Assembly (NCBI GenBank): GCA_947056845.1
Contig: CAMSCJ010000009.1
Location: 554-64,553, forward strand
Source: an uncultured Mycoplasmatota bacterium
GTDB lineage: Bacteria > Bacillota_I > Bacilli_A > RF39 > UBA660
Length of the DNA stretch: 64,000 nucleotides
Reading direction: 5' to 3'
Shown here: piece by piece, positions 1,623 through 20,594 of the stretch
How positions within the stretch are numbered: position 1 is the stretch's first letter
Layout: every line of letters begins with the position of its first letter
Translations under genes and position numbers: made by a program
The notes under the pieces: model-generated
Told to the model about the DNA's origin: nothing
Seen by the model: only the letters and a program-made list of their open reading frames with translations
Database searches by the model: none

Positions 1623-1690
1623 TTACAAGATGGGGATAAAAGAGTAAAATAGTGGTGTACAGTGGTTAAAAGTGGATAAAAGTGGGTGAT
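1623..1690 (+). promoter_or_regulatory. mraZ promoter region with phased AGTGG direct repeats (putative MraZ operator)
   Basis: A candidate -35 TTACAA (1623-1628) and -10 TAAAAT (1645-1650) are present. AGTGG (or AGAGT) recurs at 1641, 1651, 1661, 1671 and 1681 with exact 10-bp spacing. This matches the known MraZ autoregulatory GTGG[GT] repeat arrays. The last repeat overlaps the mraZ SD. Confidence 0.55.
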
Positions 1691-1693
1691 TTT

Positions 1694-2128
1694 ATGCTAA
1701 TGGGTGAGTATCATCATACAATTGATGAAAAAGGTCGATTAACAATTCCATCCAAAATTCGATATGAATTGGGCGAGGGTTTTGTTGTTACAAGAGGCTT
1801 AGATAAATGTTTATCTATTTATCCTAAAGAAGAGTGGGATAATATTATTAGAAAGTATAAAGAATTACCACAAACTAAGGATGTTCGAAATTTTATGAGA
1901 ATTTTTTTATCGGGAGCTACCACTTTAGAATTTGATAAACAAGGTCGAATTAATATTCCATCCCCACTTGTTACTTTTGCTAATTTAAAAAAAGATTGCA
2001 TTATTATAGGTGTTAATGATCGATTAGAAGTATGGAGTCACGAAAATTGGCAAGAATTTATTAATACTAATGAAGATAATTTATCTGATATAGCCGATAA
2101 TCTATTTGCAACAAACATTAATATTTAA
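1694..2128 (+). CDS. mraZ: Transcriptional regulator MraZ
   Basis: The product begins MLMGEYHHTIDEKGRLTIP and carries a duplicated MraZ fold motif (GRINIP). It sits at the head of mraZ-rsmH-ftsL-pbp. The ATG at 1694 is preferred over the GTG at 1682. Confidence 0.9.
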   Translation: MLMGEYHHTIDEKGRLTIPSKIRYELGEGFVVTRGLDKCLSIYPKEEWDNIIRKYKELPQTKDVRNFMRIFLSGATTLEFDKQGRINIPSPLVTFANLKKDCIIIGVNDRLEVWSHENWQEFINTNEDNLSDIADNLFATNINI

Positions 2129-2139
2129 GGGGTGACTTC

Positions 2140-3063: not shown

Positions 3064-3064
3064 T

Positions 3065-3361
3065 ATGAAAAAGAAGAAAGTAAGAAAAATGAAAATTACA
3101 AAATTTGAAAAATTGTTATATATGACAGCTTTTTTGTGTTTAATTTCGACAATGGTTTTTAAAATATTTTGTGGAGCTAGTGTAGGCCATTTAAGCATGA
3201 GTGTTGAAAAGTTAAAATTTGATATTAGTGAACAAGAAAAGAAAATTGAGAGTTTGAACATGCAGGTTAACGAATTAACGTCTTTTACTGAAGTTCAGGA
3301 TGTTGTTAAAAATATGGGTTTATCATATAACAATCAAAATGTCATCATTATTAATGAATAA
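3065..3361 (+). CDS. ftsL: Cell division protein FtsL-like (small bitopic coiled-coil)
   Basis: 98 aa with one TM helix followed by a coiled coil. Lies between rsmH and the PBP gene. Confidence 0.6.
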   Translation: MKKKKVRKMKITKFEKLLYMTAFLCLISTMVFKIFCGASVGHLSMSVEKLKFDISEQEKKIESLNMQVNELTSFTEVQDVVKNMGLSYNNQNVIIINE

Positions 3362-3377
3362 ATAGAGGTGTTTAATT

Positions 3378-5591: not shown

Positions 5592-5662
5592 TTGTCAGTA
5601 TTTTTCTTGTTTGCCTAACTATTATTGTTATACAATTTTTTTAATTTTTATGGGGTGAGATT

Positions 5663-6193
5663 ATGCGAATAATATTTATTTCTGATATTCATGGAATAAC
5701 TAAAAATTTAGATTATATAAAGAAAACTTTTGATATTTTAAATTGCGACAGAATAGTTGTTTTAGGTGATTTATTTAATGGTCCTTCTATTTTAGAAGAT
5801 TATAATTCTTTATATGTTTTAGAATTTTTAAATAGTTTTAAAGATAAACTAATTTGTATGCGAGGTAATTGTGATACTAATAGCGATTTAAAAAAGTGCG
5901 ATTTTAGCATTTATGATGGCTTATTTAAAATAAAAATAGATAATTATAATTTTTATTTTAATCATGGTAATAGTTATAATTATGATAATTTAGGCGATAT
6001 TAATGAAGGCGTTTTAATATACGGTCATGAGCATAAGCCATATATTCGAAAAAAAGGTAATGTTTTGTGTATAAACCCAGGTTCTATTTCTTTACCAAGA
6101 GGAAATTTTATGGAAAGCTATTTATTATATGACAATGGTAAATTTAGTATATATGAGATTAACAATAATTTAGTTTGTGAATATTTATTGTAA
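5663..6193 (+). CDS. Metallophosphoesterase (YfcE/MPP family)
   Basis: Motifs DIHG, GDLFNGP, GNCD and GHEHKP. Confidence 0.8.
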   Translation: MRIIFISDIHGITKNLDYIKKTFDILNCDRIVVLGDLFNGPSILEDYNSLYVLEFLNSFKDKLICMRGNCDTNSDLKKCDFSIYDGLFKIKIDNYNFYFNHGNSYNYDNLGDINEGVLIYGHEHKPYIRKKGNVLCINPGSISLPRGNFMESYLLYDNGKFSIYEINNNLVCEYLL

Positions 6194-6267
6194 ATTCATA
6201 CAAAGTATATTGTTTTAATTGTAGTTTTTTAGTAAGATTAATATGTCTTATTTTTATAAGATGAAAT

Positions 6268-6341
6268 GTCCTGCTAGCTTAATTGGATAGAGCAACTCTC
6301 CAACTAAGAGGTAGATAGGGGTTCGATTCCCCTGCGGGATA
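6268..6341 (+). tRNA. tRNA gene with canonical T-arm but atypical anticodon loop (CCAACUA); isotype uncertain
   Basis: The acceptor stem GUCCUGC/GCGGGAU has two G-U pairs. D-arm is GCTT-AATTGGATA-GAGC. T-arm is AGGGG-TTCGATT-CCCCT. A T7 run follows the discriminator base. The anticodon stem CUCU/AGAG leaves a loop with C33 and U37, so the anticodon cannot be read with confidence. Confidence 0.55.
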
Positions 6342-6425
6342 TTTTTTTGTGATTTTAAAAAAATTATTTTAAATTTGTTTCTAAAAAACTTAATTTATGA
6401 TATAGTTAATTAGAGGTAGATGATA

Positions 6426-7472
6426 ATGGCTAATGTAATAAACGAAAAATGTCCAACATGCAATGCACCACTTAAATATGATGCTAAAAAAGATCAATTT
6501 AAGTGTGAATACTGTGCTAATGTATATTCATTAGAAGATTTAGAAAAGTATAAGAAAAAGAACGAAAAATTTAAAATTTTAGAAAAAATGTCTGATATGG
6601 ATGGATATAGATGTTCTAGTTGTGGAGCCGAAATTATAACAGGCGATAATGTGGCATCAACATCTTGTGTTTATTGTAAAAATACAGCGCTTATAAAAGA
6701 GCGATTAACAGGGCTATATGCCCCAAGTAAAATTATAACTTTTAAATATAATAAAGACGACGCTATTAATGCTTTTAAGAAAAAATGTAAGGGTAGATTA
6801 CTTCTTCCTAGTCAATTTAATGATATTAAAAATATTCAAGAGATGGAGGGACTTTATGTACCATTTTGGCTATACGATTGTAACAATGATGCTAGTTTAA
6901 CGGCAAAATGTACTAAGGTTAAGTCTTGGTCAGATTCTAGGTATGTTTATACCAAAACAGATACTTATAATGTATCACGTTCTGGAGATTTAAATTTTGT
7001 TAAAGTACCAGCTGATGGCTCTAGTCGTTTTGATGATACGATAATGAGTGCGATTGAGCCATTTAATTATGATGAATTTAAAAATTTTAATATGTCGTAT
7101 TTGTCGGGTTATATTTCTGAAAAATATGATGTTGATAAAGATGCAGCTTATAATGTAACTATGAATAGAATAAAAGAAGATTCAAAACGTTATTTATTGG
7201 ATAGTATTGTTGGTTATACAACCAAAGTGATTAATTCTAATAATGATGATATTAAATTAAATAATACTGATTATGTATTGTTACCTGTTTGGGTATTGAA
7301 TATAAAATTTAAAGAAAAAATTTATCATTTTGCTTATAATGGTCAAACTGGAAAAATGGTTGGAGAAATACCTGTTGATAAGAAAAAATTATTATTAACA
7401 ATTATTATTAGCTTTATAGTACCTTTTATTATTATATTACTTATTTTTGTTTCTCAAGGATATAGGTGGTAA
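6426..7472 (+). CDS. Double zinc-ribbon protein with C-terminal TM anchor (unknown function)
   Basis: Two CxxC...CxxC pairs at the N-terminus, a roughly 220-aa middle domain, and a C-terminal TM helix. The ATG at 6426 fits the GAGGT SD spacing best. Confidence 0.7.
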   Translation: MANVINEKCPTCNAPLKYDAKKDQFKCEYCANVYSLEDLEKYKKKNEKFKILEKMSDMDGYRCSSCGAEIITGDNVASTSCVYCKNTALIKERLTGLYAPSKIITFKYNKDDAINAFKKKCKGRLLLPSQFNDIKNIQEMEGLYVPFWLYDCNNDASLTAKCTKVKSWSDSRYVYTKTDTYNVSRSGDLNFVKVPADGSSRFDDTIMSAIEPFNYDEFKNFNMSYLSGYISEKYDVDKDAAYNVTMNRIKEDSKRYLLDSIVGYTTKVINSNNDDIKLNNTDYVLLPVWVLNIKFKEKIYHFAYNGQTGKMVGEIPVDKKKLLLTIIISFIVPFIIILLIFVSQGYRW

Positions 7473-7473
7473 T

Positions 7474-8370
7474 ATGAAGAAGTTTTTAATATTTTTTATA
7501 ACTTTATTTTGTAGTATTCAAAATGTCGGGGCAATGGTAACTACTTATGAAAGAACAACCGATGACTATTTAGTTCCTGATTCAATTAATATTACTTCTA
7601 GTAATAGAAATGCTATTTTAAAAACGCCAGCTGTTAATGAAAATGAAAAAGTTTACGATTTTGCCAATTTACTTGATGATAGTGAAGAAGATCAATTATA
7701 TAATAAAATTAATAATTATATTGAAACGAGTAAATATGATTTAGTAATTGTTACAATTAATGATAATAATAAGTATAGTGCTACAGAGTATGCTGACGAT
7801 TTCTTTGATTATAATAATTTTGGGTTTGGAACTAGTCGCGATGGTCTTTTGATTCTAATTGATATGGATACACGAGTGATATGGATATCGACTAGTGGTA
7901 TGGCTATAAAGATGTATGATGATTCAAGGATTGATAGTATTATTGATGCAGGTTATTATTATTTAAAAAATCAGGAATATTATGAATGTTTAACAAGAGT
8001 GATAGATAAAATAAATAATTATTTTTTATCTGGTTATCCAAGTAGTAATAGTAATTTATTTATTGATGAAGATGGAAATCCTTACTATATTAAAAAGATT
8101 CCTTATGTAATGGTATTATTAATGTCTGGTGCTATATGCGCCATTACATCATTAATTTTATATTTTAAAACATCCTCGAAGATTAAAAAACAGAATACCG
8201 TTACTTATATTAACCCTAATATGACTAATATAATTAAGAATGATCAATTTGTTACAACTTATACATCACGTGTTAGAATTCAATCTAGTTCTAGTGGTTC
8301 AGGTGGTGGTAGTAGTTTTCATTCAAGTAGTAGTGGAAGAAGTCATGGTGGTGGAGGTCGAAGCTTTTGA
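7474..8370 (+). CDS. TPM-domain (TLP18.3/Psb32/MOLO-1 type) protein with C-terminal TM and Gly/Ser-rich tail
   Basis: Signal peptide. TPM signature (VYDFANLL...DLVIVTI...RDGLLILIDMDTRVIWISTSG). TM helix followed by an SSSGSGGGSS tail. Abuts the stop of the zinc-ribbon gene. Ends with a TGA stop. Confidence 0.8.
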   Translation: MKKFLIFFITLFCSIQNVGAMVTTYERTTDDYLVPDSINITSSNRNAILKTPAVNENEKVYDFANLLDDSEEDQLYNKINNYIETSKYDLVIVTINDNNKYSATEYADDFFDYNNFGFGTSRDGLLILIDMDTRVIWISTSGMAIKMYDDSRIDSIIDAGYYYLKNQEYYECLTRVIDKINNYFLSGYPSSNSNLFIDEDGNPYYIKKIPYVMVLLMSGAICAITSLILYFKTSSKIKKQNTVTYINPNMTNIIKNDQFVTTYTSRVRIQSSSSGSGGGSSFHSSSSGRSHGGGGRSF

Positions 8371-8397
8371 TCTTGGTTTTATTTAACCAAGATTTTT
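8371..8397 (+). terminator. Rho-independent terminator (TCTTGGTT-loop-AACCAAGA plus T6)
   Basis: Hairpin and T-run directly after the TPM gene stop. Confidence 0.6.
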
Positions 8398-8427
8398 TGC
8401 TTTTTATTATTTAAAATTATTATTATG

Positions 8428-8436
8428 TGATATAAT
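8428..8436 (+). promoter_or_regulatory. Extended -10 promoter (TGaTATAAT) for the membrane-LRR/rSAM operon
   Basis: A TGnTATAAT element lies about 18 nt upstream of the GGTGA SD of the 8454 gene. Confidence 0.45.
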
Positions 8437-8453
8437 TAAATTAGGTGAGTTGT

Positions 8454-9182
8454 ATGTACAATAAGTTATACTTTTTCTTGGTTATAGTTATATTTTGTTT
8501 TCCAATTATATTAGCCCTTTTTCCTTGGATATTAATATATTGGCTTCCTATCTTGGTTTTAATATTAGTTATTATTATCATTTTTAAAGTCAAAAAAATT
8601 GGGAATTTTAATAAATTTAGAAAAATTTTATTAGAGTATCCCAACAATGGTATTAATATTGATGAAATTATTAATTTAATTGCTAAAAATAAAGAAGATA
8701 ATTATATTAGTGTTATGATTGAAAAGGAGCTTATAAAAAATAATTATACGCGAAAAAACAATTTAAAGATAATTACCAAAAGAAAGTTTATTTTAACGAT
8801 TATTTTTTCTACTATTAATTTTTCCTTTTTAGTAGGTGTATTTTTTCATTTTCCAATTTATATTTATTTTTTAGAACTACTAAATATAATTTTATATATT
8901 GTATTTATGAAAAAAATTAATGTCATAAATGTTATCAAAAAAGAAATTAAATCAAGACCAACGGAAAATATTTCTTATATTATTTCTAGTATGCTAAATG
9001 GAAATATTGTTTATTCTTCGGGTAAATTTAAAAATTGTATTTTTATATTAGTTTCTATTGTATTACCACTTTTTATTTTCTTTAATCCGCATATTTTGTA
9101 TGAAAAAGTCGATGGTGGTTATTATGTTAGATTTTATACAATTGGTATAACAAATTATCAAACAGTTACTATTCCTGATTAA
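8454..9182 (+). CDS. Polytopic membrane protein; N-terminal portion of a membrane-anchored LRR protein interrupted by an in-frame TAA
   Basis: GGTGA SD 5 nt upstream of the ATG at 8454. Multiple TM helices. The last residues (YTIGITNYQTVTIPD) already follow the BspA-type LRR pattern, which continues in frame after the TAA at 9180-9182. Confidence 0.6.
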   Translation: MYNKLYFFLVIVIFCFPIILALFPWILIYWLPILVLILVIIIIFKVKKIGNFNKFRKILLEYPNNGINIDEIINLIAKNKEDNYISVMIEKELIKNNYTRKNNLKIITKRKFILTIIFSTINFSFLVGVFFHFPIYIYFLELLNIILYIVFMKKINVINVIKKEIKSRPTENISYIISSMLNGNIVYSSGKFKNCIFILVSIVLPLFIFFNPHILYEKVDGGYYVRFYTIGITNYQTVTIPD

Positions 9183-10112
9183 TATAAAGGTGAAAAGGTA
9201 ATTGGTATTAGAGGTAATGTTTTTAAAAATATGGTATTTTTAAAAGAGATTAAGTTGCCAGATACGATACAGGTAATTCGTGGTGGAGCTTTCGAAAATG
9301 TTTATAATTTAACAGCAATCGATTTACCAAAAGACTTAATTTATTTAGGTGGTAGTGCTTTTAAAAACTGTAGGTCCCTAAAAAGTATAACAATACCTAG
9401 TGGTGTTAAGGAAATTAATGGTAATACTTTTGAAAATTGTTATTCGTTAGAAGATGTTAACCTACATAATGAAATTACTAGTATTCATGGTGAGGTATTT
9501 AAAAATTGTACTTCTTTAGTAAAAATAAATTTGCCTAGTAAGATAACCGAAATAAGAGGATCAACATTTGAAGGTTGCACTGCGCTAAAAGAAATAGATA
9601 TTCCATCTGGTGTTACTAGAATCGGTGGACATGCATTTCATGGGTGTAGTTCTTTGACTAAGGTTAGTGTGCCTTCAACCGTAGAGGAAATAGGTAGTTC
9701 AGCTTTTAGAGCCTGCACTTCTTTATATTCAATAAAAATTCCTAAAAATGCAATAGTTAATGAGAGAGCATTCAAAGAAAGCCCAACAAGTGTTAGTTAT
9801 ATAGGAGAGGATAATCCAACTTATAACAATAACAATAATTCTGTTGATTCAAAAACGTATACATTATATTTAAATCAAGAGAAATATATTAATGATGAAT
9901 TGCGTATTACCCTAATATCATTTACCGATACAACTCATGATGAAAATATATTTATTGGGATGAGTGGAACAATCAAAATAGTTACAAAAAAGGATACATA
10001 TTATTTTGATTTTCAAACATCATCTCCACAAAATTATAAATATATTTTTGAAGGTTATACTTTAGAAGTAAAATCAGGGATGGATAATTATATTAAAATA
10101 ATTTTTCGTTAA
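9183..10112 (+). CDS. BspA-type leucine-rich repeat (LRR_5) domain plus beta-rich C-terminal domain; same frame as 8454..9182 with no independent RBS
   Basis: Repeats such as IPSGVKEINGNTFENCYSL and IPSGVTRIGGHAFHGCSSL. The frame is open from 9183, and the first Met (9231) lacks any SD. The ORF-track call is 9231..10112. Confidence 0.6.
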   Translation, partial: YKGEKVIGIRGNVFKNMVFLKEIKLPDTIQVIRGGAFENVYNLTAIDLPKDLIYLGGSAFKNCRSLKSITIPSGVKEINGNTFENCYSLEDVNLHNEITSIHGEVFKNCTSLVKINLPSKITEIRGSTFEGCTALKEIDIPSGVTRIGGHAFHGCSSLTKVSVPSTVEEIGSSAFRACTSLYSIKIPKNAIVNERAFKESPTSVSYIGEDNPTYNNNNNSVDSKTYTLYLNQEKYINDELRITLISFTDTTHDENIFIGMSGTIKIVTKKDTYYFDFQTSSPQNYKYIFEGYTLEVKSGMDNYIKIIFR

Positions 10113-10130
10113 GTATTTACAGGAGGTTTT

Positions 10131-11882
10131 ATGAGCGACTACAAATTTATGCATCTTCTTTATGTTCCAACTATGGCTTGTAATATGGCCTGTAAGTATT
10201 GCTATTTAGAAGATAATACCAAAGATGAATGGGGTAAGTATAAAGCAATTGATACATTAAAATTTGCTATAGAAAAATTTAAGAAATCTAATGTAATCCC
10301 TTTTAATATTTCATTACATGGTGGTGAAGTTACAACTTTAAGCAAAGATGAATTTCATAATTTGATTGAATATATTGATGCTTATTATAAAGATAATAAC
10401 AACTTAATTACGGGAAATGGTTTTAAAGTTGGCAATCCACATATTAAAACTAATTTATATGATTTAAAAAAGCATATTGATACGATTAGAAAGTTTTCTG
10501 TTTCTATTAGTGGTAGTTTGGATCTTCCGTTTTCCTTACATGATAAGTTTAGGATAACTAAAGGTGAAAAGAAAACATTACATAATATTTTAACTAACAT
10601 TGCTTTATTAGAAACAATCCCTAATAAAAAGAAAATCTCGGCAACCATTTTTAAAGAACATTATAAATATATTGAAGAGATAATTAATGATATAAAATTT
10701 TTAGATAAAAGTACTTGTTTAGATATGAACGATTTTAATTTTATGATTGGTTTTGATTATAATTCAAATGGCTTGTTAACACCTTTGACAGAAGAAGAAC
10801 AAGTTAAATTTTTTAAACGAATGCACAAAGAATTTGATGGAACTAATTTGGATAAAGGTGTTAATGGTGCTTGGTTTAATGAGTTTGGACCAGAGTATTG
10901 TACCAATTGTGATAATTGTGGGGAAAAATTCTTTTTGTTAGAAAAAAATGGCGATATTTACTCTTGTGTTAGAGGTCAAAAAAATAAAGATTTCTATTAT
11001 GGAAATATTTATAAGGATAGTGTGGAAACAATTTTAGAAAATGCTAAAATAAAAATATTTAAAATTCATAATCAACTATCTTTTAATGCGGAATGTTCTA
11101 AATGTGAATACTTATATTTATGTAAAACAGGTTGTCCATTTGTAAAAAATGTTTATAAATCTAATAAATCATACACTTGTAAATTACAATTAGAATTATA
11201 CCAACAAAGAAATTATGAAAAAGACGCATATCCAGATGAAACAACTTATGAATATGTATCTAAATTACACCCTAGTTTAATTGAAAAATATTATCCAAAT
11301 CAGGAACCAAATCTTGGTTATCCCAGTCTAGAAAAAATAATAGAAGAAGACTCCAGATTAAAATATTTATATGATAATAATACCTTTATTCTATCAGTTG
11401 ATGATTATAAATATTTTTTAGAATCACAAATTTTAAGAAAAAAAAGAGAAATTATTTATATTAGTGATGAAAGTAAAATTAAGATATATTTAGATAAAAA
11501 AGTAATGGAAGCTGAATGTGATTATCCACAAAACAATTCTTTATATATAATGGTATTAAGTGGCAATTTAATTCAGTATGGTGATGAAGGTCGAATTAAA
11601 CAGGAACATATTATGTCTGAACAAATATATAAGGGTGTTTTAGAAAAAAATGAATCTGATTTAGATGAATATTTTTGTTATGATATTTCAAATATGCTTA
11701 AAGAATTTAAAAAATACTATTCAAAAGATAATCCTAATAATTTATTTTTTACAACTAATGCCTTAAGAGATTATCATTATACAAAGCAAAAAAATAATGC
11801 TTATTATCATTTTCAAGCAATTAATTTACCATTTCAAAATATTGAGTTTTATTATGTAGAGGAGGAAGATTATGTTAAATAA
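10131..11882 (+). CDS. Radical SAM/SPASM-domain enzyme (anSME/peptide-maturase-like) with roughly 200-aa C-terminal extension
   Basis: AGGAGG SD. A Cx3Cx2C motif (CNMACKYC) spans residues 17-24. SPASM-type cysteine clusters (CTNCDNCGE...YSC and CSKCEYLYLCKTGCPF). The protein is 583 aa, whereas anSME-type enzymes are about 370-400 aa. Confidence 0.85.
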   Translation: MSDYKFMHLLYVPTMACNMACKYCYLEDNTKDEWGKYKAIDTLKFAIEKFKKSNVIPFNISLHGGEVTTLSKDEFHNLIEYIDAYYKDNNNLITGNGFKVGNPHIKTNLYDLKKHIDTIRKFSVSISGSLDLPFSLHDKFRITKGEKKTLHNILTNIALLETIPNKKKISATIFKEHYKYIEEIINDIKFLDKSTCLDMNDFNFMIGFDYNSNGLLTPLTEEEQVKFFKRMHKEFDGTNLDKGVNGAWFNEFGPEYCTNCDNCGEKFFLLEKNGDIYSCVRGQKNKDFYYGNIYKDSVETILENAKIKIFKIHNQLSFNAECSKCEYLYLCKTGCPFVKNVYKSNKSYTCKLQLELYQQRNYEKDAYPDETTYEYVSKLHPSLIEKYYPNQEPNLGYPSLEKIIEEDSRLKYLYDNNTFILSVDDYKYFLESQILRKKREIIYISDESKIKIYLDKKVMEAECDYPQNNSLYIMVLSGNLIQYGDEGRIKQEHIMSEQIYKGVLEKNESDLDEYFCYDISNMLKEFKKYYSKDNPNNLFFTTNALRDYHYTKQKNNAYYHFQAINLPFQNIEFYYVEEEDYVK

Positions 11883-12264
11883 ACAACCAAAAACTTATCA
11901 GGAATTAATTATGTTTAAACAATGTTGTGAATTATCAAAATATTATATAATAACTGATGAATTATTTAATGAAATCTATGACTTTTTAAGTGAAAGAACG
12001 GATAATAGTATTTATATATCTACGGCTAGTAATGTTTTAAATTTTTATAGTAACGAAAATAATAATAATAACTTTTTTGTGAGAGAACCAATTGTATTAA
12101 CACCTAAAAAAAATAATCTTAGTAGTTCTATTGATAAGATTTATATAAAAAATAATAAATTTGAAATTATACAACATTTTACAAGTTCAACATATCATAG
12201 TGGAAGTTCAGGTTCTTCTTCAAATAACAACAATAACAATAACAATAATAACAACAATAATTAA
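11872..12264 (+). CDS. Hypothetical 130-aa protein with poly-Asn tail, translationally coupled to the rSAM gene
   Basis: The GAGGAGG SD is embedded in the last rSAM codons, and the start overlaps the rSAM stop by 11 nt. The tail reads SGSSGSSSN(13). Confidence 0.55.
   Translation: MLNKQPKTYQELIMFKQCCELSKYYIITDELFNEIYDFLSERTDNSIYISTASNVLNFYSNENNNNNFFVREPIVLTPKKNNLSSSIDKIYIKNNKFEIIQHFTSSTYHSGSSGSSSNNNNNNNNNNNNN
12223..12261 (+). repeat. Trinucleotide (AAT/AAC)n simple-sequence repeat encoding poly-Asn
   Basis: About 13 consecutive AAY codons at the 3' end of the 11872 ORF. Confidence 0.7.
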
Positions 12265-12275
12265 TGAGGTAATGT

Positions 12276-13310
12276 ATGGCAAGAATAACAGAAAAATTAC
12301 ATATTGCGAGACTAAAAAAATTTAATATTAATATAAAAACTAAATATAAAGATGACGATGATATTTTAGAAAGAAATACAGATAATTCTAAAAATGATGA
12401 TATTAATAATGGTATTAGAATTGAAAAAGATTATTATCAAAATGGTATTTTATTAAAAAAACTTTATAATTTTGACCCTAGAATAAAATATACTTTTATA
12501 TCTAAAGATAGTGAAAATAAAGAAATTGAATGTCCTAATTGTGGTAATCGTGGTATTGTTAAAGATTTTTTAGAAGGTTGTGAATATTGTGGCACGCATT
12601 ATAATATAGATTATAATAATAAAGGCTTAGGGGCTAAATATCATTATGATAGAACGATTCATAGTAATCATTATATAACAATAACTTTTCTTATTGATTT
12701 AATTGTTTGTTTAATAATCTTTTTAATATATATAAAGGGAAGTAGTCGAACTTTTAATATATACGATATTTGTAAAGTTTTAATTGGTGGTGTTATTACG
12801 GCTTCAGCTCTTTTCTATGTATTTTATATGCTTGACGCTGTAATCGTTCTTTTACCTATAAAAATATATAAAGATAAACAAAATCAAAAGCAAATAGCGT
12901 TTTGGAATAGAATGAAAGAAAAAAATATTGATGCACTAACATTTTATAACAATTTTAATTATGAATTACAAGATTATTATTACGGAAGTCTATCAGAAGA
13001 TGATAACATAATTGATTATGATATAATTGATTACCATAGTTTTAATGATTCTCTTGATTCTAATAATTTTTTAAATATTGAGGTATGTGTAAGTATTCGT
13101 ATTGTAAGACTAATCAATAATAAAATTACTTCAAAAATTGAGAAGAAATTGTTTAAATTAAAGAAAAATAATAAAAAAATGGAAAGATTAAATAATGGTG
13201 TTAATTTGATTAATTGCCATAATTGTGGAGCCTCAATTGATGTTACTCATGGTGAGTGTGATTATTGTCATACTAAGAATAATTATTTACAAGAGTGGTA
13301 TTTGGTTTAA
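12276..13310 (+). CDS. Membrane protein with N- and C-terminal zinc ribbons flanking TM helices (unknown function)
   Basis: GAGGT SD. The N-terminal part carries CPNCGNRG...CEYCG. Two or three TM helices lie in the middle. The C-terminal part carries CHNCGA...CDYCH. Confidence 0.65.
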   Translation: MARITEKLHIARLKKFNINIKTKYKDDDDILERNTDNSKNDDINNGIRIEKDYYQNGILLKKLYNFDPRIKYTFISKDSENKEIECPNCGNRGIVKDFLEGCEYCGTHYNIDYNNKGLGAKYHYDRTIHSNHYITITFLIDLIVCLIIFLIYIKGSSRTFNIYDICKVLIGGVITASALFYVFYMLDAVIVLLPIKIYKDKQNQKQIAFWNRMKEKNIDALTFYNNFNYELQDYYYGSLSEDDNIIDYDIIDYHSFNDSLDSNNFLNIEVCVSIRIVRLINNKITSKIEKKLFKLKKNNKKMERLNNGVNLINCHNCGASIDVTHGECDYCHTKNNYLQEWYLV

Positions 13311-13392
13311 AAAAATAAATGAAAAATAAGTGTAATTTCTAATATTTATACTTATTTTTTTTTAAATTCATAAAATTTTATGAGGTGTTATC

Positions 13393-15300
13393 ATGTTTGT
13401 AAGAGATTATCATAAAAGAATTAAAATTATATTAGTTGTAATTATTTTATTATTTGTTTTAATAATTGGTAAGATATTTTATATTCAAGTTTTTAGTTAT
13501 AATAAGTTAAATGATTATGCGAATGATTTATGGAGTAGAAATTTACCAATTGAGGCTAACCGAGGAATTATTTATGATCGTAATGGTGTAGTAATTGCTG
13601 ATAATATTACGACAACTTCATTAGTTTTAATCCCTAATCAAATTGATGATAAAGAAAAAACAGCTAAAGAATTAGCCGAAGTATTAAATGTAAGTTATGA
13701 TGATATGTATGCGCATGTCTCTAAAAAAACATCTATTGAAAGAGTCCATCCTGAAGGAAGAAGATTATCGTATGAAGTTGCTGACAAAATAGCTAGTTTA
13801 AATCTGCCGGGTGTTTACTTAGTTAAAGAGTCAAAACGTAATTATCCCTTTGATACTTATTTATCTCATACATTAGGTTTTGTTGGAATTGATAACCAGG
13901 GTCTAAGTGGCTTAGAGTTAATGTATGATAATCTTTTGACAGGTGAATATGGCGCAATAAAATATTTTAGTGACGCAAAGGGAAATAGGTTAAGTTTAAA
14001 TGAGGTTTATGAAAAACCGCAAGATGGAATAAATATGACTTTGACAATTAATATGGATATTCAAGTCTCGTTAGAAAGAGAACTTGATAATGCGATGTTA
14101 AAATATAATCCAGATCAAGCCTTAGGAATTGTTATGGACCCTAAAACTGGTGAAATTTTGGCAATTTCATCACGACCTAATTTTTCACCTAGTGAATATC
14201 AAAATTATACAGTAGAAGAGATAAATAGAAATTTACCAGTATGGATGACTTATGAACCTGGTTCAACTTTTAAAATAATTACTTTAGCTGCTTCGTTAGA
14301 AGAAAAAATTGTTGATTTAGATAATGATCATTTTTCTGATTCAGGTGCGATTAGAGTAGATAATGCCACACTTCATTGTTGGAAACATGGGGGACATGGG
14401 GAACAAACTTATCTGCAAGTCGTTGAAAATTCATGCAATCCAGGATTTGTAAATTTAGGTTTAAAATTAGGTAAGGAAACACTATTTGATTATATAGATA
14501 AATTTGGTTTTGGAGAAAAAACTGGTGTAGATTTAAATGGTGAAGGAACAGGAATTATTTTTAATCTTGATAAAGTTGGTAATGTTGAATTAGCAACAAC
14601 CGCTTTTGGTCAAGGTGTATCAGTTACTCCAATCCAACAAATAACAGCAGTTAGTGCTGCCATTAATGGTGGTTATTTAAATAAACCTTATATTGTTAAA
14701 AGTCTAAATGAGCCAGAAACAAATACAGTAATACAAGAAAATGAAAGGCAAATTGTTAGAAAAGTAATAAGCGAAGAAACAAGCGAAAAGGTTAGATATG
14801 CACTAGAAAGTGTTGTATCAAATGGAACAGGACGGCCTGCTTATATTGACGGTTATCGTGTAGGGGGAAAAACTGGTACAGCTCAAAAAGTCCAAAATGG
14901 GCGTTATATGGTTGGGAATTATATTGTATCTTTTATAGGTTTTTTACCAGCTGATGATCCCCAAGTTATTGTTTATATAGCTTTGGATAACGCGAAAGGT
15001 GTTGTGCAATATGGTGGAACAGTAGCAGCTCCCATTGCTAAAACCGTTTTAACAGACGCAATAACAGCTTTGGGGATTGAGAAAAGGGAAGGAAGTACCG
15101 AAAAAAAATATAATTATAATGATAAAAAATATATTGATGTTGCTAATGTAGTAGGCATGGATAAAAATGAAGCTATTAAAAATTTAAAAAGCTTTAAAGT
15201 TGAATATACAGGAACAGGAAATAAGGTTATATATCAGTCTCCTAGTGCAGGCGAAAGAATTTTAGAAGGTGAAACAGTAAGATTGTTACTTGAGGATTAG
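13393..15300 (+). CDS. Class B penicillin-binding protein, SpoVD/FtsI-like, with one C-terminal PASTA domain
   Basis: TM anchor. Transpeptidase motifs STFK, SCN and KTGTA. A PASTA repeat at the C-terminus. GAGGTG SD. Confidence 0.9.
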   Translation: MFVRDYHKRIKIILVVIILLFVLIIGKIFYIQVFSYNKLNDYANDLWSRNLPIEANRGIIYDRNGVVIADNITTTSLVLIPNQIDDKEKTAKELAEVLNVSYDDMYAHVSKKTSIERVHPEGRRLSYEVADKIASLNLPGVYLVKESKRNYPFDTYLSHTLGFVGIDNQGLSGLELMYDNLLTGEYGAIKYFSDAKGNRLSLNEVYEKPQDGINMTLTINMDIQVSLERELDNAMLKYNPDQALGIVMDPKTGEILAISSRPNFSPSEYQNYTVEEINRNLPVWMTYEPGSTFKIITLAASLEEKIVDLDNDHFSDSGAIRVDNATLHCWKHGGHGEQTYLQVVENSCNPGFVNLGLKLGKETLFDYIDKFGFGEKTGVDLNGEGTGIIFNLDKVGNVELATTAFGQGVSVTPIQQITAVSAAINGGYLNKPYIVKSLNEPETNTVIQENERQIVRKVISEETSEKVRYALESVVSNGTGRPAYIDGYRVGGKTGTAQKVQNGRYMVGNYIVSFIGFLPADDPQVIVYIALDNAKGVVQYGGTVAAPIAKTVLTDAITALGIEKREGSTEKKYNYNDKKYIDVANVVGMDKNEAIKNLKSFKVEYTGTGNKVIYQSPSAGERILEGETVRLLLED

Positions 15301-15320
15301 GCATTTTAATATACTAAAAA

Positions 15321-15350
15321 ATGAAAAGCATATTATTACTTTTCATTTTT
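15321..15350. terminator. Bidirectional terminator between convergent genes (AAAATGAAAAG-loop-CTTTTCATTTT)
   Basis: A palindrome flanked by an A-run on one side and a T-run on the other. Confidence 0.5.
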
Positions 15351-15854
15351 TATAAGTATTTTATTATAAGTTGGTTTTAATTTAGATATTCTAATTTGCT
15401 CTCCTAAATATTTTTGATTTTCAATAGGAGATAAGGACCAATCGTTGTTTAAATATCTAATAATATTTTGAATTATATATAATTCATTTTCTTCAATGTG
15501 TTCACTAGATTCTAAAAATACTAAAGCTGATTTTTCAATGTTTGAAGTTTCAAAATTTAAAGAAAATCTTTTTAATTCGTCGACTAAATCATTTAATTCA
15601 TGTTTATTTTTTATGATAGGGATTTCTTGTTTAGAGATGGCAATACAAAAATCTAGATTAGTTGGATCTTGAATAATTTTAAGCGTATAATCTTCTTTTA
15701 AACTCATAAACATTTCATTTAAAATATCAATTTCTGTATCAGTAATATCAAATTTTGAATCAATCAAAGTTATTGCCTCTTGCATAATTCTCTTATCATT
15801 TAAATCGGTAACATGTGCCATATACTCTTTAATAATTTGACTAAAATTATCCAT
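15336..15854 (-). CDS. Hypothetical protein (about 172 aa), co-transcribed with the HD-GYP gene
   Basis: Overlaps the HD-GYP gene stop. AAAGGAG SD upstream of the second ATG (MDNF). Confidence 0.55.
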   Translation of the reverse strand: MDNFSQIIKEYMAHVTDLNDKRIMQEAITLIDSKFDITDTEIDILNEMFMSLKEDYTLKIIQDPTNLDFCIAISKQEIPIIKNKHELNDLVDELKRFSLNFETSNIEKSALVFLESSEHIEENELYIIQNIIRYLNNDWSLSPIENQKYLGEQIRISKLKPTYNKILIKNEK

Positions 15855-17073
15855 TATTCGCATCTCCTTTTACTAATTGTTTATCACGTTTTTGTTTTTG
15901 CCCATCTTGTTCTTTTTTGTAATTTATATTTAAGTCAGCTTGTCTTTTGGCTTCCCTTAAATTATCCATTGTCGTTTTACTATTACTAATGACATCAATA
16001 AATTTGTCAACCAATTTGGGATTATAGAAGACACCTAATCCATCGCCATCACCATAAGGTTTTGTATGTCTTTTTAAGTCTTCAAAGGCTTCTTCGGCCG
16101 ATTTTACCCTGTTATAGGAACGCTGTGATGTCATGGCGTCAAAACTATCAGCAATTGCTAGAATTTGCGCTAATAAGGGAATTTGTTCTCCTTTTAAACC
16201 ATCAGGATAGCCACTTCCATCATATTTTTCATGATGTGCTCTAACTGCGTCTTTTAAATATCCTAATTGATTTGCTGGTAGCAATGTAGCTCCAAGCTCA
16301 ACATGTTTTTTCATTAAATTAAATTCCAAATCATTTAATTTATCTGTTTTAGTTATAACTGCATCAGGTAAGGCAATCTTTCCAATATCATGAAGGTTAG
16401 CTGCTAAAATTAAATTTTCTAATTCTTCTTCATTCATACCCAAAGCATGACCTAGAGCTTCCGCATAATTAGCAACTCTTTCACAATGACCTCTAGTATA
16501 ATTGTCCTTTAAAGAAATAAAATCATTTAATGTTTGTGCTAATTTGAATAGGTATTTTTTTGAGATATAATTTACACTTTTACCACTATTTAAATCTGCC
16601 TCAATATCCATTGACTTATATATGTTTTTGGCACCTAAATTAGTTAATATTTGTAATTTCATAATGTTAGATAATTGGCACATATCAATAATTTGTTTCA
16701 TCGATTTCTCAGTTTTGGTTGTTGTTATTTGTTTACCTTTTTTTACTTCTTCAACCTTCTCATTAGTTAATTCAAAGGTATTATCTAAATTTACTTGTTG
16801 TTTTTTAGTACTAACTTTGGCTAAACTACAATGTGATTCATATAAAATATTTATAATTTTATTATCAATTAAACTATCTATATCACAGATTACAATATCT
16901 GGTTTTTGTAAGATATGAAAATCTTTCAATTCATTAAACCTGGAAGAATCATTTCCAATATCTACGACATCAAAATGTTCTGTCGGAAGGTATTTATTAA
17001 TAATCATATATTCTCTAGCACTAATATTATATAGCCATATAGTGTATTTACTGTTTTTATAAATTTCTTGCAT
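15847..17073 (-). CDS. HD-GYP domain phosphohydrolase with degenerate receiver-like N-terminal domain
   Basis: HD motif (HDIGK) and GYP motif (HHEKYDGSGYPDG). AAAGGTGA SD. Confidence 0.8.
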   Translation of the reverse strand: MQEIYKNSKYTIWLYNISAREYMIINKYLPTEHFDVVDIGNDSSRFNELKDFHILQKPDIVICDIDSLIDNKIINILYESHCSLAKVSTKKQQVNLDNTFELTNEKVEEVKKGKQITTTKTEKSMKQIIDMCQLSNIMKLQILTNLGAKNIYKSMDIEADLNSGKSVNYISKKYLFKLAQTLNDFISLKDNYTRGHCERVANYAEALGHALGMNEEELENLILAANLHDIGKIALPDAVITKTDKLNDLEFNLMKKHVELGATLLPANQLGYLKDAVRAHHEKYDGSGYPDGLKGEQIPLLAQILAIADSFDAMTSQRSYNRVKSAEEAFEDLKRHTKPYGDGDGLGVFYNPKLVDKFIDVISNSKTTMDNLREAKRQADLNINYKKEQDGQKQKRDKQLVKGDANNG

Positions 17074-17311
17074 TTTATCACCTTTATTATATTATCATAT
17101 ATTAGAAAAAAAATGCCTATTTATAACTTACAAAAATAAATTTTTTTACTATTAGTTTGGAAGGAGAAAAAAATATGTAAATAAATGTAAAATATTATTA
17201 TGCTATTGCATCAATTAAATAATTATTTTTTTGTCAATTGGTTGATAAAATCATTAATTTAGTTAAATTTATGGTATAATACTTTATATAAAAATTGGGA
17301 GAGATTATATA

Positions 17312-18013
17312 ATGGAATTTATTGAATTTAAAAATGTTAGTAAAGAATATACGATGGGTGAGGTTACAATAAAAGCATTAAATAAAACTAATTTTACAAT
17401 TAAAAAGGGTGAATTAGTTGTTATTTTGGGACCATCTGGAGCTGGAAAAACAACTTGTCTTAATATTTTAGGTGGTATGGATACTGTTACTAGTGGTCAG
17501 GTTTTAATTGATGGGGCTGATATAACTAAATATAAGGCTAAAAATTTAATTGATTATCGCCGACATGATATTGGTTTTGTTTTTCAATTTTATAATTTAA
17601 TTCAAAATTTGACATCTTTAGAAAATGTAGAATTAGCGGTTCAGTTATGTAACGATCACTTAAATCCAGAACAAATTTTAAAAAGTGTTGGTCTTAAAAA
17701 TCGTCTACATAATTTCCCATCACAGTTATCTGGCGGGGAACAACAAAGGGTATCCATTGCTAGAGCAATTGCCAAAAATCCGAAAATACTTTTATGTGAT
17801 GAACCAACAGGGGCTCTAGATTATAAAACTGGAAAACAGATTTTAAAATTATTAGAGGATACTGCACGTGAAAAAAATATGACTGTTATAATTGTAACGC
17901 ATAATAGTGCCTTAGCTGATATGGCGAATAAGGTCATTAAATTTAAAAATGGTTCCGTTGAAGAGATAATAATTAATAAAAAACCAAAATCAATTGAAAG
18001 TATTGAGTGGTAA
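17312..18013 (+). CDS. ABC transporter ATP-binding protein (MacB/LolD-type)
   Basis: Walker [10 protein letters not shown], signature LSGGEQQR and Walker B ILLCDEPT. An extended -10 (TGGTATAAT) lies upstream at about 17269-17280. Confidence 0.9.
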
Positions 18014-18014
18014 T

Positions 18015-20498
18015 ATGAAAAATAGAATACTTACGAATAGTTTAAGGCAAATTAAAAAGTCATATAAAAGGTTTATATCATTATTATTAATGAGTTTGTT
18101 AGGTGTAGGTTTTTTTGTAGGCATTCAATTAACTAGTCCTGATATGTTAAAAACTTTGGATAATTATTTGGATGAGACTTCTTATTATGATTTAGAAATT
18201 ATATCTAACTATGGTTTGACAGAGGATGATCTAAATGTTTTAAAAAATATTGATGATGATTTAGATGTTGTTGGTTCTAAAGGTATCGATTCAGTAATAA
18301 GTGTTGATAAGTATCAATATGTTGTAAAGTTAATTGAATTAACAAATGTTAATAGGGTTACGGTTATTGATGGACAGTTACCAACTAATAATCAAGAAAT
18401 AGTTGTTGAGGAACAATTTTTAAATGATAATAATCTAGTAATTGGTGACTTTATAACCATAGATTCAGAAAGTTTAATAAACAAAGATTATAAAATTACT
18501 GGTATAATTGAAAGTCCATTATATTTTTCTAAAGAACGTGGAACATCACAACTTGGTAATGGAAGCATTTCTTATTATATGTATGTTTTAGATAGTGCCT
18601 TTAATATAGATTATTTTACTAATATTTATATTAATGTTAAGAATGCTAAAGAGTTAATTACTAGTGAGGAAGAATATATTGATTTAGTTGAAGAGGTAGA
18701 AAACAAAATTGAGGCAATTAAACATGATAGAGAAAAAATACGTTTAGATGATATAAAAAAATCGAAACTAAAAAAAATGTTAGGGATAGAACCAGATAAC
18801 TTTGATGCTTATGATCAATATTTTATCGATTTAGATGATTGCATTTGGTATATTTATGCACGAGATAATAGTAGTGCATATCAAGAGTATATTGATGCTA
18901 CTACTAGTTTAAAAAAATTAGGCAATGTCTTCCCAATTGTTTTTTATGTGATTGCGATTTTAATTAGTTTAATCTCAATGACAAGAATGGTTGAAGAGGA
19001 TAGGACTGAAATAGGTACTTTAAAATCTTTAGGTTTTGCAAATGGGAAAATATTATTCAAATATATTAGTTATGCTACCTTAGCGACTATTATTGGTGGT
19101 GGGCTTGGTGTTATTGTTGGTGGTTATTTAATTCCTAGTATTATTTGGGATATTTATTTAATGCTTTTTGATGTCCCTAATTTTGTTATTAGTTTTGATT
19201 TTAGAATTGTATTGGTTGGTATTTTAATCGCATTTGTTTGTATCGTTGGTGCCACTTTTATCGCAGTTTATAAAACACTTTTAAATATGCCATCCAAATT
19301 AATAAGACCTAAAGCTCCTATTGGTGGTAAGCGTATTTTATTAGAAAGAATACCATTTTTATGGAAACATTTAAAATTTTCTAATAAAATTTCAACGAGA
19401 AATTTATTTCGTTATAAAAAAAGAATCATTATGACTGTTATTGGTATATCAGGTTGTACGGCGCTTATTTTAGCTGGTTTTGGCTTAAGAGATTCTATTG
19501 TTGATATTGTCAATTTACAATTTAATAATGTTCAATTGTATGATGATATGGTAATTATGACATCTAATAAAGATAGTGATGCTTTATTAGAAAGATTAAA
19601 TAATGATAAATATGTTAAAAAAGTAACTATGGCGAGTATGAATAATGTTTCACTTAAAAATAGTAATATTTTAAAAAATGCTACAATGATAACTACGGAT
19701 AATGAATTTAAAGGTGTTATAAATTTAAATGACATAAGTAATAATAAAGTGCTGGAAGTTTCTGATGATGTTGTTTATATTTCGTCAAAATTGGCTAAAT
19801 TAATTGATGCTAAAGTTGGTGAAGATATTGAAATTATTTATGATAAGAAAAGTTATTTTATTGAAGTGGGAGCTATCGTTGAAAACTATGTTAATAATTA
19901 TATTTATATTAACAAAAATACTTATTTAAATTTATTTAAAAACTATACTGATAATATTATATATATTTCATTAGAAGATGGAGTAACTTGGGATTATAAT
20001 GAAAATTTAATGAGTGAGCTTTTAACGTTTTCTTCAGTAGCTAGTGTTTTATCGATTGATGAAACAGTCTCCTCAGTTAGTCAAATGCTCGAATCATTAG
20101 ATTCAGTAGTTGTTATTTTAATTATTTCTTCAGCTCTTTTAGCTTTTGTTGTTTTATATAATTTATCAACCATTAATATTAGCGAGCGTAAAAGAGAAAT
20201 TGCGACTCTAAAAGTTTTAGGTTTCTATGATAGTGAAGTGGATTCTTATATTACAAGAGAAAATATTATTTTAACTATTATTGGTTTAACTATTGGTTTG
20301 TTTTTAGGTTCTTATTTAAGTCATTTTATTATAAGTACATGTGAAACAGAAAACTTATTGTTTGTTCGCAATGTTAATTTTACAAGTTATATTTATTCTT
20401 CAATTATAACGGTTTCTTTTACAATTATTGTTAATATCGTAACGCACTTTAGTTTAAAGAAGATTGATATGATTGAGAGTTTAAAGGGCGTTGAATAA
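18015..20498 (+). CDS. ABC transporter permease, duplicated FtsX/MacB-type (about 828 aa)
   Basis: Two FtsX-like 4-TM modules, each preceded by a large extracytoplasmic domain. The ATG directly follows the ATPase stop. Confidence 0.85.
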   Translation: MKNRILTNSLRQIKKSYKRFISLLLMSLLGVGFFVGIQLTSPDMLKTLDNYLDETSYYDLEIISNYGLTEDDLNVLKNIDDDLDVVGSKGIDSVISVDKYQYVVKLIELTNVNRVTVIDGQLPTNNQEIVVEEQFLNDNNLVIGDFITIDSESLINKDYKITGIIESPLYFSKERGTSQLGNGSISYYMYVLDSAFNIDYFTNIYINVKNAKELITSEEEYIDLVEEVENKIEAIKHDREKIRLDDIKKSKLKKMLGIEPDNFDAYDQYFIDLDDCIWYIYARDNSSAYQEYIDATTSLKKLGNVFPIVFYVIAILISLISMTRMVEEDRTEIGTLKSLGFANGKILFKYISYATLATIIGGGLGVIVGGYLIPSIIWDIYLMLFDVPNFVISFDFRIVLVGILIAFVCIVGATFIAVYKTLLNMPSKLIRPKAPIGGKRILLERIPFLWKHLKFSNKISTRNLFRYKKRIIMTVIGISGCTALILAGFGLRDSIVDIVNLQFNNVQLYDDMVIMTSNKDSDALLERLNNDKYVKKVTMASMNNVSLKNSNILKNATMITTDNEFKGVINLNDISNNKVLEVSDDVVYISSKLAKLIDAKVGEDIEIIYDKKSYFIEVGAIVENYVNNYIYINKNTYLNLFKNYTDNIIYISLEDGVTWDYNENLMSELLTFSSVASVLSIDETVSSVSQMLESLDSVVVILIISSALLAFVVLYNLSTINISERKREIATLKVLGFYDSEVDSYITRENIILTIIGLTIGLFLGSYLSHFIISTCETENLLFVRNVNFTSYIYSSIITVSFTIIVNIVTHFSLKKIDMIESLKGVE

Positions 20499-20520
20499 AA
20501 GTATAAATATAAATTAAAAA

Positions 20521-20547
20521 AATAGTATAAGTTGTACTATTTTTTTC
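20521..20547 (+). terminator. Rho-independent terminator (AATAGTA-loop-TACTATT plus T6)
   Basis: Perfect 7-bp stem followed by a T-run, downstream of the permease gene. Confidence 0.6.
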
Positions 20548-20594
20548 ATATACTTTATTAGAAGTTTATAATAAAAAATAAAGTAGGTGTTTAT

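Follow-up and report, generated by a model that had tools for sequence, protein, structure and literature searches.

We analysed a 64,000-nt stretch of contig CAMSCJ010000009.1 (referred to as the window), which originates from a low-GC (about 26%), uncultured gut member of the Bacilli and carries a division and cell wall (dcw) gene cluster that is split into separate blocks. The first block, mraZ-rsmH-ftsL-pbpB, is contiguous and co-oriented with spacers of 1–16 nt, and its last gene encodes a class-B penicillin-binding protein (PBP) of the PBP2B type (pbp2B in the following). The second block is opened by the gene of a SpoVD-like class-B PBP (spoVD) and includes mraY and ftsW. An earlier note on this DNA had described two interruptions of about 7.8 kb and 5.3 kb, and the coordinates confirmed both: pbp2B and spoVD are separated by 7,801 nt, spoVD and mraY by 5,294 nt. 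Together the two gaps contain 13 unrelated open reading frames (ORFs) and one tRNA-like gene. The gene content proposed for them, namely a metallophosphoesterase (MPP), a zinc-ribbon/TPM pair, a leucine-rich repeat/radical SAM (LRR-rSAM) group, an HD-GYP gene and a MacB-type ATP-binding cassette (ABC) transporter, was recovered with Pfam and NCBIfam. All positions are collected in Table 1.

The same note had stated that murE, murD and murG are absent from their expected positions. Indeed no Mur ligase or MurG domain was detected among the approximately 50 window ORFs scanned against Pfam, and the three genes are missing from the cluster throughout the lineage. Their absence is lineage-wide and not caused by the insertions: for most species the spacers within spoVD-mraY-ftsW range from a few nt to about 20 nt, too short to accommodate them.

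Related loci were collected by scanning for the SpoVD-like PBP and keeping one genome per species, which yielded 80 loci (numbered with the prefix L) with 70–95% identity. All of them belong to uncultured gut Bacilli and most are metagenome-assembled genomes. They are labelled as Bacilli, 'Tenericutes', 'Acholeplasma sp. CAG:878', 'Firmicutes bacterium CAG:822' or Candidatus Coprosoma, and in the NCBI taxonomy two of these genera are assigned no further than Bacillota or Bacilli incertae sedis; they may belong to the GTDB order RFN20. Closed genomes among them have a size of 1.25–1.5 Mb. We mapped the window proteins onto the 80 loci and then measured the spacers. The closest relatives, L001 (95% SpoVD identity to the window), L002 (95%), L003 (92%) and L004 (91%), were additionally compared by blastn and alignment of the junctions. 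Further contigs were retrieved via the ABC permease: L084–L088 (85–86% identity) and L120 (76%).

The spacer between spoVD and mraY is only 5–59 nt long in 63 of 75 species, and these 63 span SpoVD identities of 70–83%. In the other 12 it measures 0.5–4.3 kb (maximum 4,271 nt) and is filled with unrelated cargo; the 5.3-kb gap of the window is the largest found. The genes mraY and ftsW are at most 51 nt apart in 49 of 55 species. On this distribution spoVD-mraY-ftsW without murE and murD represents the ancestral arrangement of the lineage, and the interruption between spoVD and mraY is clearly derived.

Outside of the two blocks the situation is different. Block 1 is colinear in L001, L002, L007, L008, L010 and others. 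Among the 48 loci whose sequence extends 9 kb or more upstream, only 17 have a pbp2B gene on that side of spoVD, at distances between 147 and 7,687 nt, and in L006, L016, L053 and L054 the mraZ block is located downstream or is inverted. The gene directly upstream of spoVD belongs to 53 different families among 68 species, the gene following ftsW to 43 families among 58. In other species these junctions are occupied by genes for cardiolipin synthase, a PGA_cap protein, LicD, a metallo-beta-lactamase-fold protein, LDH, CNNM/CBS, an AMP-binding enzyme, GlmS, pheT and MMPL; no mobility genes were found among them. Gene order beyond the two tight blocks is poorly conserved across the lineage. A synteny comparison with relatives had been suggested in the earlier note as a test for an inherited arrangement. 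The order of the window was matched at genus level only, and there only for the MPP-zinc ribbon-TPM genes, the HD-GYP pair and the ABC transporter; at family level no match was seen.

We considered whether the interrupted order could itself be ancestral, with the relatives having tight spoVD-mraY-ftsW or TPM-spoVD junctions owing these to gene loss during genome shrinkage. The small genomes of the closed relatives would fit such a history, the base-perfect join from the TPM stop codon to the spoVD terminator in L001 could be produced by a deletion as well, and the patchy occurrence of the ABC cassette in close relatives makes some losses necessary. However, the near-equal short spacer shared by 63 species, together with the unrelated nature of the cargo in the 12 exceptions, would require dozens of independent precise deletions, and the rSAM module is found at a different housekeeping site (lepA) in other genomes. 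We therefore regard an ancestral interrupted order as unlikely.

Table 1. Features of the dcw region in the window and similar tRNA-like genes on other contigs (positions in nt; TM, transmembrane; ZnR, N130, Zn344 and h175 are short names used in the text).
Feature	Position	Strand	Basis and remarks
Conserved dcw block 1, mraZ-rsmH-ftsL-pbp2B	1682..5591	+	ORFs, Pfam
mraZ	1682/1694-2128	+	ORF map, Pfam
rsmH	2140-3063	+	ORF map, Pfam
ftsL	3065-3361	+	ORF map, Pfam
Class-B PBP (PBP2B-like, two PASTA domains)	3378-5591	+	ORF map, Pfam
YfcE-family metallophosphoesterase (MPP)	5663-6193	+	Pfam Metallophos_2; NCBIfam PRK09453, 137 bits (cutoff 117)
Insert carrying the tRNA-like gene (~188 nt)	6185..6372		blastn breakpoints, junctions; also in same-species L081
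tRNA-like gene	6268-6341	+	Rfam tRNA, 45 bits; ARAGORN 6267-6342
Double zinc-ribbon membrane protein (ZnR)	6420-7472	+	Overlaps TPM gene; synteny
TPM-domain protein	7447-8370	+	Pfam TPM_phosphatase
LRR-rSAM cassette (4.9 kb)	8369..13312	+	Absent at this slot in relatives; blastn breakpoints
Predicted terminator after TPM, inside cassette	8369-8394	+	
Multi-TM ORF	8445-9182	+	
BspA-type LRR ORF	9231-10112	+	
Radical SAM/SPASM protein	10131-11882	+	Pfam, NCBIfam
Asn-rich 130-aa ORF (N130)	11872-12264	+	21% Asn
Zinc-ribbon membrane protein (Zn344)	12276-13310	+	
Terminator-like hairpin with T-run	13321..13360	+	Fold z = -4.2; within conserved spoVD upstream region
SpoVD-like class-B PBP, one PASTA domain	13393-15300	+	Pfam; opens conserved block 2
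Two-gene operon: 175-aa ORF (h175) and HD-GYP phosphodiesterase	15336-17073	-	Pfam HD_5; NCBIfam NosR-like; synteny
ABC transporter cassette with own promoter region	17105..20516	+	blastn breakpoints, junctions, Pfam
ABC ATPase	17312-18013	+	
Permease, MacB_PCD and two FtsX domains	17994-20498	+	Pfam
Terminator-like hairpin before mraY	20516-20546	+	Fold z = -4.0; sequence also upstream of mraY in L002, L120
Promoter-like TTCATA-16-TATAAT	20545-20572	+	Promoter scan; weak evidence in AT-rich DNA
mraY	20595-21587	+	Pfam; block 2
ftsW	21595-22686	+	Pfam; block 2
OmpR-type response regulator and histidine kinase	22776-24708	+	Pfam, NCBIfam
Rpn-family PD-(D/E)XK recombination-promoting nuclease or putative transposase	24927-25703	+	NCBIfam, 66.7 bits (cutoff 52.1)
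Environmental tRNA-like genes with the same anticodon arm	L089:208-281, L090:76-149, L091:796-869, L092:9091-9164, L093:886-959	L092: -	

Comparison with the closest relatives resolved the first gap into parts of different distribution. MPP, ZnR and TPM are present in L001, L002 and L086, and ZnR-TPM in L004; in more distant species they do not occur in this interval. All genus-level relatives have the overlapping ZnR-TPM pair. The three genes are an old, genus-level addition upstream of spoVD. MPP is just 69–74% identical between the window and the genus-level relatives. In L001 alone, pbp2B is separated from MPP by genes for a GDSL lipase and an acyltransferase. The slot between TPM and spoVD varies among close relatives: it measures 0 nt in L001 and L086, 1.4 kb with other genes in L002, 8.4 kb in L004 and 4.9 kb in the window, where it holds the LRR-rSAM cassette. 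L001 positions 9919 and 9920 are adjacent at the place of window positions 8369–13312, with the TPM stop codon abutting the terminator upstream of spoVD. Every cargo variant found in this slot among the genus-level relatives stops within a few nt of the same hairpin. Different cargoes could share the same boundaries because selection would act against disruption of the TPM stop codon or of the spoVD terminator and leader. Within the cassette the multi-TM and LRR ORFs represent one gene for a membrane-anchored BspA-LRR protein of about 555 aa (8445–10112), which is split by an in-frame TAA at 9180–9182. A contig of the same species, L081, reads GAA at this position, which leaves a nonsense mutation of the one strain or an error in sequencing as explanations for the TAA.

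The second gap likewise consists of separate units. The translated HD-GYP gene shows the motif HHExxDGxGYP. The h175/HD-GYP pair occupies the spoVD|mraY slot also in L001, L002, L003 and L086; in L004 it is located about 7 kb downstream of ftsW, and in L120 it does not occur in this slot. At the position of the ABC cassette we found 44–70 nt in L002 and L003. The cassette is missing in L004 and lies in the same slot in L084–L088 and L120. In total five states of the spoVD|mraY slot could be distinguished: the pair together with the ABC transporter (window, L086–L088; L001 has the pair and its contig stops before the ABC position), an fn3 protein together with the pair (L002), only the pair (L003), the ABC transporter without the pair (L120), and a 0.5-kb spacer (L004). 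The order in L086 is MPP-ZnR-TPM-spoVD-h175-HDGYP-ABC-mraY-ftsW-response regulator-histidine kinase, without the LRR/rSAM module and without the tRNA-like gene. Past a 1.85-kb insert that codes for the fn3-domain protein, L002 has the final ~60 nt of spoVD a second time in degraded form (L002:11868–11902 and 13818–13852). This duplicate is the footprint of an insertion inside the 3' end of spoVD.

The segment following ftsW behaves like the other cassettes. Response regulator and histidine kinase are present in the window and in L084–L086 and absent in L002 and L004. The Rpn-family gene just behind them, inside this variable segment, was found in this species only. The ABC transporter and the two-component system are both present (window, L084–L086) or both absent (L002, L004), and may be functionally linked while bracketing mraY-ftsW. 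As an obligate module in general this combination was rejected: ABC homologues with 52% identity lack an adjacent regulator and kinase.

Three more contigs from independent assemblies (L081, L082, L083) carry an identical SpoVD sequence. L081 represents a second strain of the species. It contains N runs and frameshifts, covers the region from pbp2B through the response regulator, and is colinear with the window there, at 97.5–99.5% identity. L082 extends from N130 to the HD-GYP gene and L083 from Zn344 to h175, both colinear with the window. These contigs bear on the question of whether the arrangement is an assembly or binning chimera. Suspicion of that kind could draw on the mainly metagenome-assembled genomes of the relatives and on the N runs and frameshifts of L081. 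Yet all three contigs agree with the window where they overlap it, L081 at nearly full identity, and the GC skew is positive throughout all same-strand junctions. The chance that the arrangement is a chimera is practically negligible.

We also assessed the origin of the cargo, which the earlier note had taken for accessory DNA with very Asn-rich genes. GC content at third codon positions (GC3) of the cargo genes is 0.12–0.18 in comparison to a window mean of 0.159 (sd 0.029; 53 window genes), and by chi-square per degree of freedom their codon usage does not leave the range seen in the other window genes. The comparison of codon usage that had been proposed for this DNA thus showed no deviation. 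Total GC falls to 21–23% in parts of the cargo, and several clearly native genes are equally AT-rich. Among the cargo proteins only the 130-aa ORF is strikingly rich in Asn (21%). For the rSAM protein we found more than 100 homologues with 68–79% identity in gut Bacilli; the protein database had nothing in the range from 79% to 99%. In L094 and L096 the four-gene LRR-rSAM module is situated between lepA and a second radical SAM gene, near pheS/pheT. The module is thus native to the lineage and has another location in this species. Orthologues of the ABC permease with 76–86% identity occupy the same slot in relatives, and homologues of about 50% occur in unrelated contexts. Judged by composition and homology the cargo is native to the lineage, having been relocated within the genome or exchanged among relatives, and is not a foreign island.

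The accessory proteins shared with relatives diverge far faster than the neighbouring core proteins: in comparisons with L001 and L086, h175 is 62%, MPP 69% and TPM 76–78% identical, versus 95–98% for SpoVD, MraY and FtsW. The difference points to selection that is relaxed or diversifying, or to replacement of alleles.

In the earlier note the tRNA in the first gap had been interpreted as a sign of insertion at a tRNA-associated hotspot. A tRNA-like gene is indeed recognized in the first gap by both ARAGORN and Rfam, although its anticodon loop is non-canonical. It can be arranged as a cloverleaf with stems of 7/4/5/5 bp, in which the Rfam alignment places G18G19, T54-Psi55-C56 and A58. In the Rfam register the anticodon loop CCAACUA reads C32-C33-A34-A35-C36-U37-A38, without the near-universal U33 and without a purine at position 37. 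ARAGORN calls 'Ser ACU' via a shifted stem (position 33 = A), which clashes with the short variable arm of 5 nt. No CCA is encoded and seven T follow directly after the gene. The copy in L081 has U55 changed to C. In the minimum-energy fold of the single sequence the D-loop pairs with the anticodon loop, and no cloverleaf is formed. The gene lies in an insert of about 188 nt that is confined to this species: L001 and L002 have 16–30 nt at the corresponding position and L086 has a 70-nt spacer.

A horizontally acquired island that integrated site-specifically with the tRNA gene as attachment site could explain the position of the tRNA-like gene within the first gap, parts of which have only 21–23% GC versus 28–31% in the PBP genes. 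The other observations speak against such an island. Searches with Pfam, NCBIfam and PADLOC (ORFs of at least 95 aa) detected no integrase, transposase or recombinase in the interval 5.6–20.6 kb, and the PADLOC scan for defence systems gave only generic weak radical-SAM and HD matches. The 21-nt 3' end of the tRNA-like gene, GGTTCGATTCCCCTGCGGGAT, for which a direct repeat at the far boundary had been proposed, occurs a single time in the 64-kb window, in the gene itself, even with up to 3 mismatches allowed. Direct or inverted repeats at the cassette borders between 5.4 and 21 kb were limited to low-identity AT-rich chance pairs. The tRNA-like gene is itself a species-specific insert that is absent in L001, L002 and L086, and its place between MPP and ZnR is 2 kb distant from the one large cassette of recent date. 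Almost all of the 80 related loci are without a tRNA, and none has one at this position; L075–L079 contain ordinary tRNAs at distances of at least 2 kb from the dcw genes. The native GC3 and codon usage and the lineage-wide homologues of the cargo complete this picture. Integration of an island at the tRNA-like gene is accordingly very unlikely and the hotspot reading is rejected, and a tRNA match adjoining variable DNA should not be taken as evidence for an integration site.

In summary, we consider it probable that the 15-kb stretch is a nested mosaic, which would have arisen by at least five separate gains of cassettes, along with some losses, at intergenic junctions and with cargo native to the lineage. 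These events differ in age. MPP-ZnR-TPM upstream of spoVD is common to the genus-level clade; the ABC transporter between spoVD and mraY is common to L120 and L084–L088 and missing in L002, L003 and L004; the h175/HD-GYP pair between spoVD and the ABC transporter is common to L001, L002, L003 and L086 and located elsewhere in L004; the LRR-rSAM module in the TPM|spoVD slot and the 188-nt tRNA-like insert occur in this species only. Entry of the cassettes could be due to illegitimate recombination or be assisted by insertion sequences; they would then spread or vanish by homologous recombination in the conserved flanking genes. Surviving insertions would be only those that lie exactly between a stop codon and the terminator or promoter of the next gene. 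We infer the homologous replacement in the flanks from the pattern; the spoVD 3'-end duplicate of L002 is the sole physical footprint.

The view of two interruptions is accordingly to be modified. The intervening DNA does not belong to the cluster in the relatives and the spoVD|mraY gap is derived, as had been assumed, while each gap goes back to several events of different ages. The earlier reading is partly supported: it was correct about the interruptions being real and derived, but largely mistaken regarding their mechanism and origin.

Instead of plain homologous exchange, the cassettes could have been moved by IS110-family elements or by the Rpn-family nuclease. The closest non-conspecific copy of the rSAM gene (79%) is located on a 6.3-kb contig (L121:1-6332), in which an IS110-family transposase adjoins the LRR-rSAM-130aa-345aa module. 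Both ends of this contig bear the same ~30-nt terminator, as expected from flanking repeats or from a circle in the assembly graph, and it may represent a circular or repeat-flanked mobile unit. The contig thus offers a lead on the way the module moves. IS110 elements typically leave neither inverted repeats nor long duplications, which would suit the clean junctions observed here, and the Rpn-family gene is specific to this species. On the other hand, neither an IS110 gene nor a remnant of one was found in the window, L121 is only one short contig of one sample, the junctions are without diagnostic sequence and a role of the Rpn protein here is only putative. Movement of the cassettes by either element is rather doubtful, and we prefer the mosaic that spreads by homologous exchange.

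Several points weigh against the mosaic. Target-site duplications, repeats and recombinase genes were not found at the window junctions. The TPM|spoVD slot is equally compatible with an insertion in this species and with a precise deletion in the lineage of L001 and L086. A sister species might hold the rSAM module elsewhere, the protein database being silent from 79% up to 99% identity. Which of the ABC and HD-GYP events came first was read from a few short metagenomic contigs in place of a proper species tree. Finally, the transcription units proposed below are predicted from hairpins and promoter-like hexamers only.

The interruption could affect transcription of the cell wall genes. In the relatives spoVD and mraY-ftsW are almost certainly co-transcribed, because the spoVD-mraY spacer amounts to about 14 nt. 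In the window the same genes would form separate transcription units, each positioned behind a terminator-like hairpin. A promoter scan was uninformative in this AT-rich sequence, with 129 sites in comparison to 125 expected in shuffled sequence.

The tRNA-like RNA is the sole unexplained element of the region, and the only one that could open something new. Using it as query in a phage search gave only generic 77% matches to phage tRNA-Arg, and scans of viral contigs for its exact 3' half and for its anticodon arm returned no match. A relaxed viral scan (loop and T-loop) yielded 19 matches, 18 of which are not tRNAs according to ARAGORN and apparently unrelated. The remaining match is an odd phage tRNA-like gene in L109 (IMGVR_UViG_3300012979_000003; 11430–11459, minus strand); ARAGORN reports it as 'tRNA-???', and its anticodon region has the loop CCAACUAA and a CAAC/GUUG stem.

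When metagenomes were scanned for the anticodon arm together with the T-loop, five environmental contigs (37–42% GC) were obtained, each with a tRNA-like gene that shares the CUCU-CCAACUA-AGAG arm and loop; identity of the arm is imposed by the search pattern. The D-loop, which was not forced by the search, is near-identical between the window and L089–L093. The differences in the acceptor, D and T stems are compensatory, both bases being exchanged in 12 of 26 pairs, and the acceptor helix can be extended to about 12 bp in both lineages. In L091 and L093, where the region is assembled, the gene is located about 220–400 nt downstream of the 5S gene at the end of a 23S-5S operon. About 110 nt farther downstream follows a conserved promoter-like site, TTGACA-17-TATACT, then UAGUUGGAGAGG and then a terminator. 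UAGUUGGAGAGG, the 5' end of this small conserved unit, complements the arm and loop of the tRNA-like gene exactly, and the unit occurs in all five contigs.

These observations raise the question of whether the gene in the window is not a decayed tRNA but a member of an undescribed family of non-canonical tRNA-shaped RNAs acting outside translation. In the 64-kb window there is no complement of the anticodon arm beyond the arm itself, only two lineages are known, with an arm whose identity the pattern dictated, and the second strain carries the U55-to-C exchange. We consider membership in such a family a tentative and rather unlikely interpretation, and treat the environmental sequences as a lead, not as a result. 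If it were true, the RNA would mimic a tRNA and have an antisense partner, in loose analogy to tRNAOther of B. cereus.

The remaining window genes are ordinary chromosomal housekeeping genes (among others enolase, FtsK, DnaG, SigA, RecD2, 6S RNA). The 6S RNA gene at 52020–52199 scored 55.9 bits in Rfam versus a gathering score of 46.4 and has no bearing on the dcw cluster. Genetic code 4, which was considered in view of the 'Tenericutes' labels of some relatives, was rejected: where the TPM gene has its TGA stop codon, the aligned L001 and L002 sequences have TAA, and the ORFs are all intact under code 11.

Although dcw is among the most order-conserved bacterial gene clusters, this lineage retains just two short blocks of it. 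The cluster has been reduced to these tight blocks, with the mur genes elsewhere and the intervening and surrounding DNA turning over fast. These gut Bacilli with reduced genomes tolerate repeated unrelated insertions between essential cell wall genes, and the lineage constitutes a natural test of how far co-transcription of the dcw genes is required. For annotation it is of use that Asn-rich genes of accessory appearance are native to the lineage here. The finding is modest: the region reflects ordinary genome plasticity and erosion of the dcw cluster, and current understanding is unchanged.

The order in Bacillus subtilis is mraZ-rsmH-ftsL-pbpB-spoVD-murE-mraY-murD-spoVE-murG-murB-divIB. In the window the cluster likewise opens with these first four genes in this order, and downstream on the same strand come a second class-B PBP, mraY and a gene of the FtsW/SpoVE family. 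In contrast to B. subtilis, the lineage of the window is without murE, murD and murG in the cluster, its two blocks are only loosely linked, and in the genus of the window unrelated genes reside within the pbp2B|spoVD and spoVD|mraY junctions.

With tRNA-linked integrative islands (pathogenicity islands, integrative and conjugative elements, prophages) the region shares species-specific blocks that adjoin a tRNA-like gene. It differs from them in that integrase, att repeat and a conserved tRNA target are absent from the window, the composition is native, and the tRNA-like gene is itself part of the cargo. Among described cases, the pseudo-tRNA tRNAOther of B. cereus, with the anticodon CCA (PMC3399842), comes nearest to this gene. 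By description only, both are lone tRNA-like genes with an aberrant anticodon region adjoining variable DNA, and the loop of the window gene contains the trinucleotide CCA; the window gene also lies among cell wall genes. Unlike tRNAOther, it is not a conserved island border and is known here from sequence alone.

A further resemblance is to flexible genomic islands. Flexible or replacement islands are a concept from the population genomics of marine and enteric bacteria, in which homologous recombination takes place between conserved flanking genes. As in these, the cargo of one slot differs from one close relative to the next although the conserved flanks stay the same; the boundaries are sharp and shared, and the slots are free of mobility genes. 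In contrast to flexible islands, recombination is here deduced from the pattern, the slots mostly contain one to four ordinary genes, and they are situated inside an essential and normally invariant operon.

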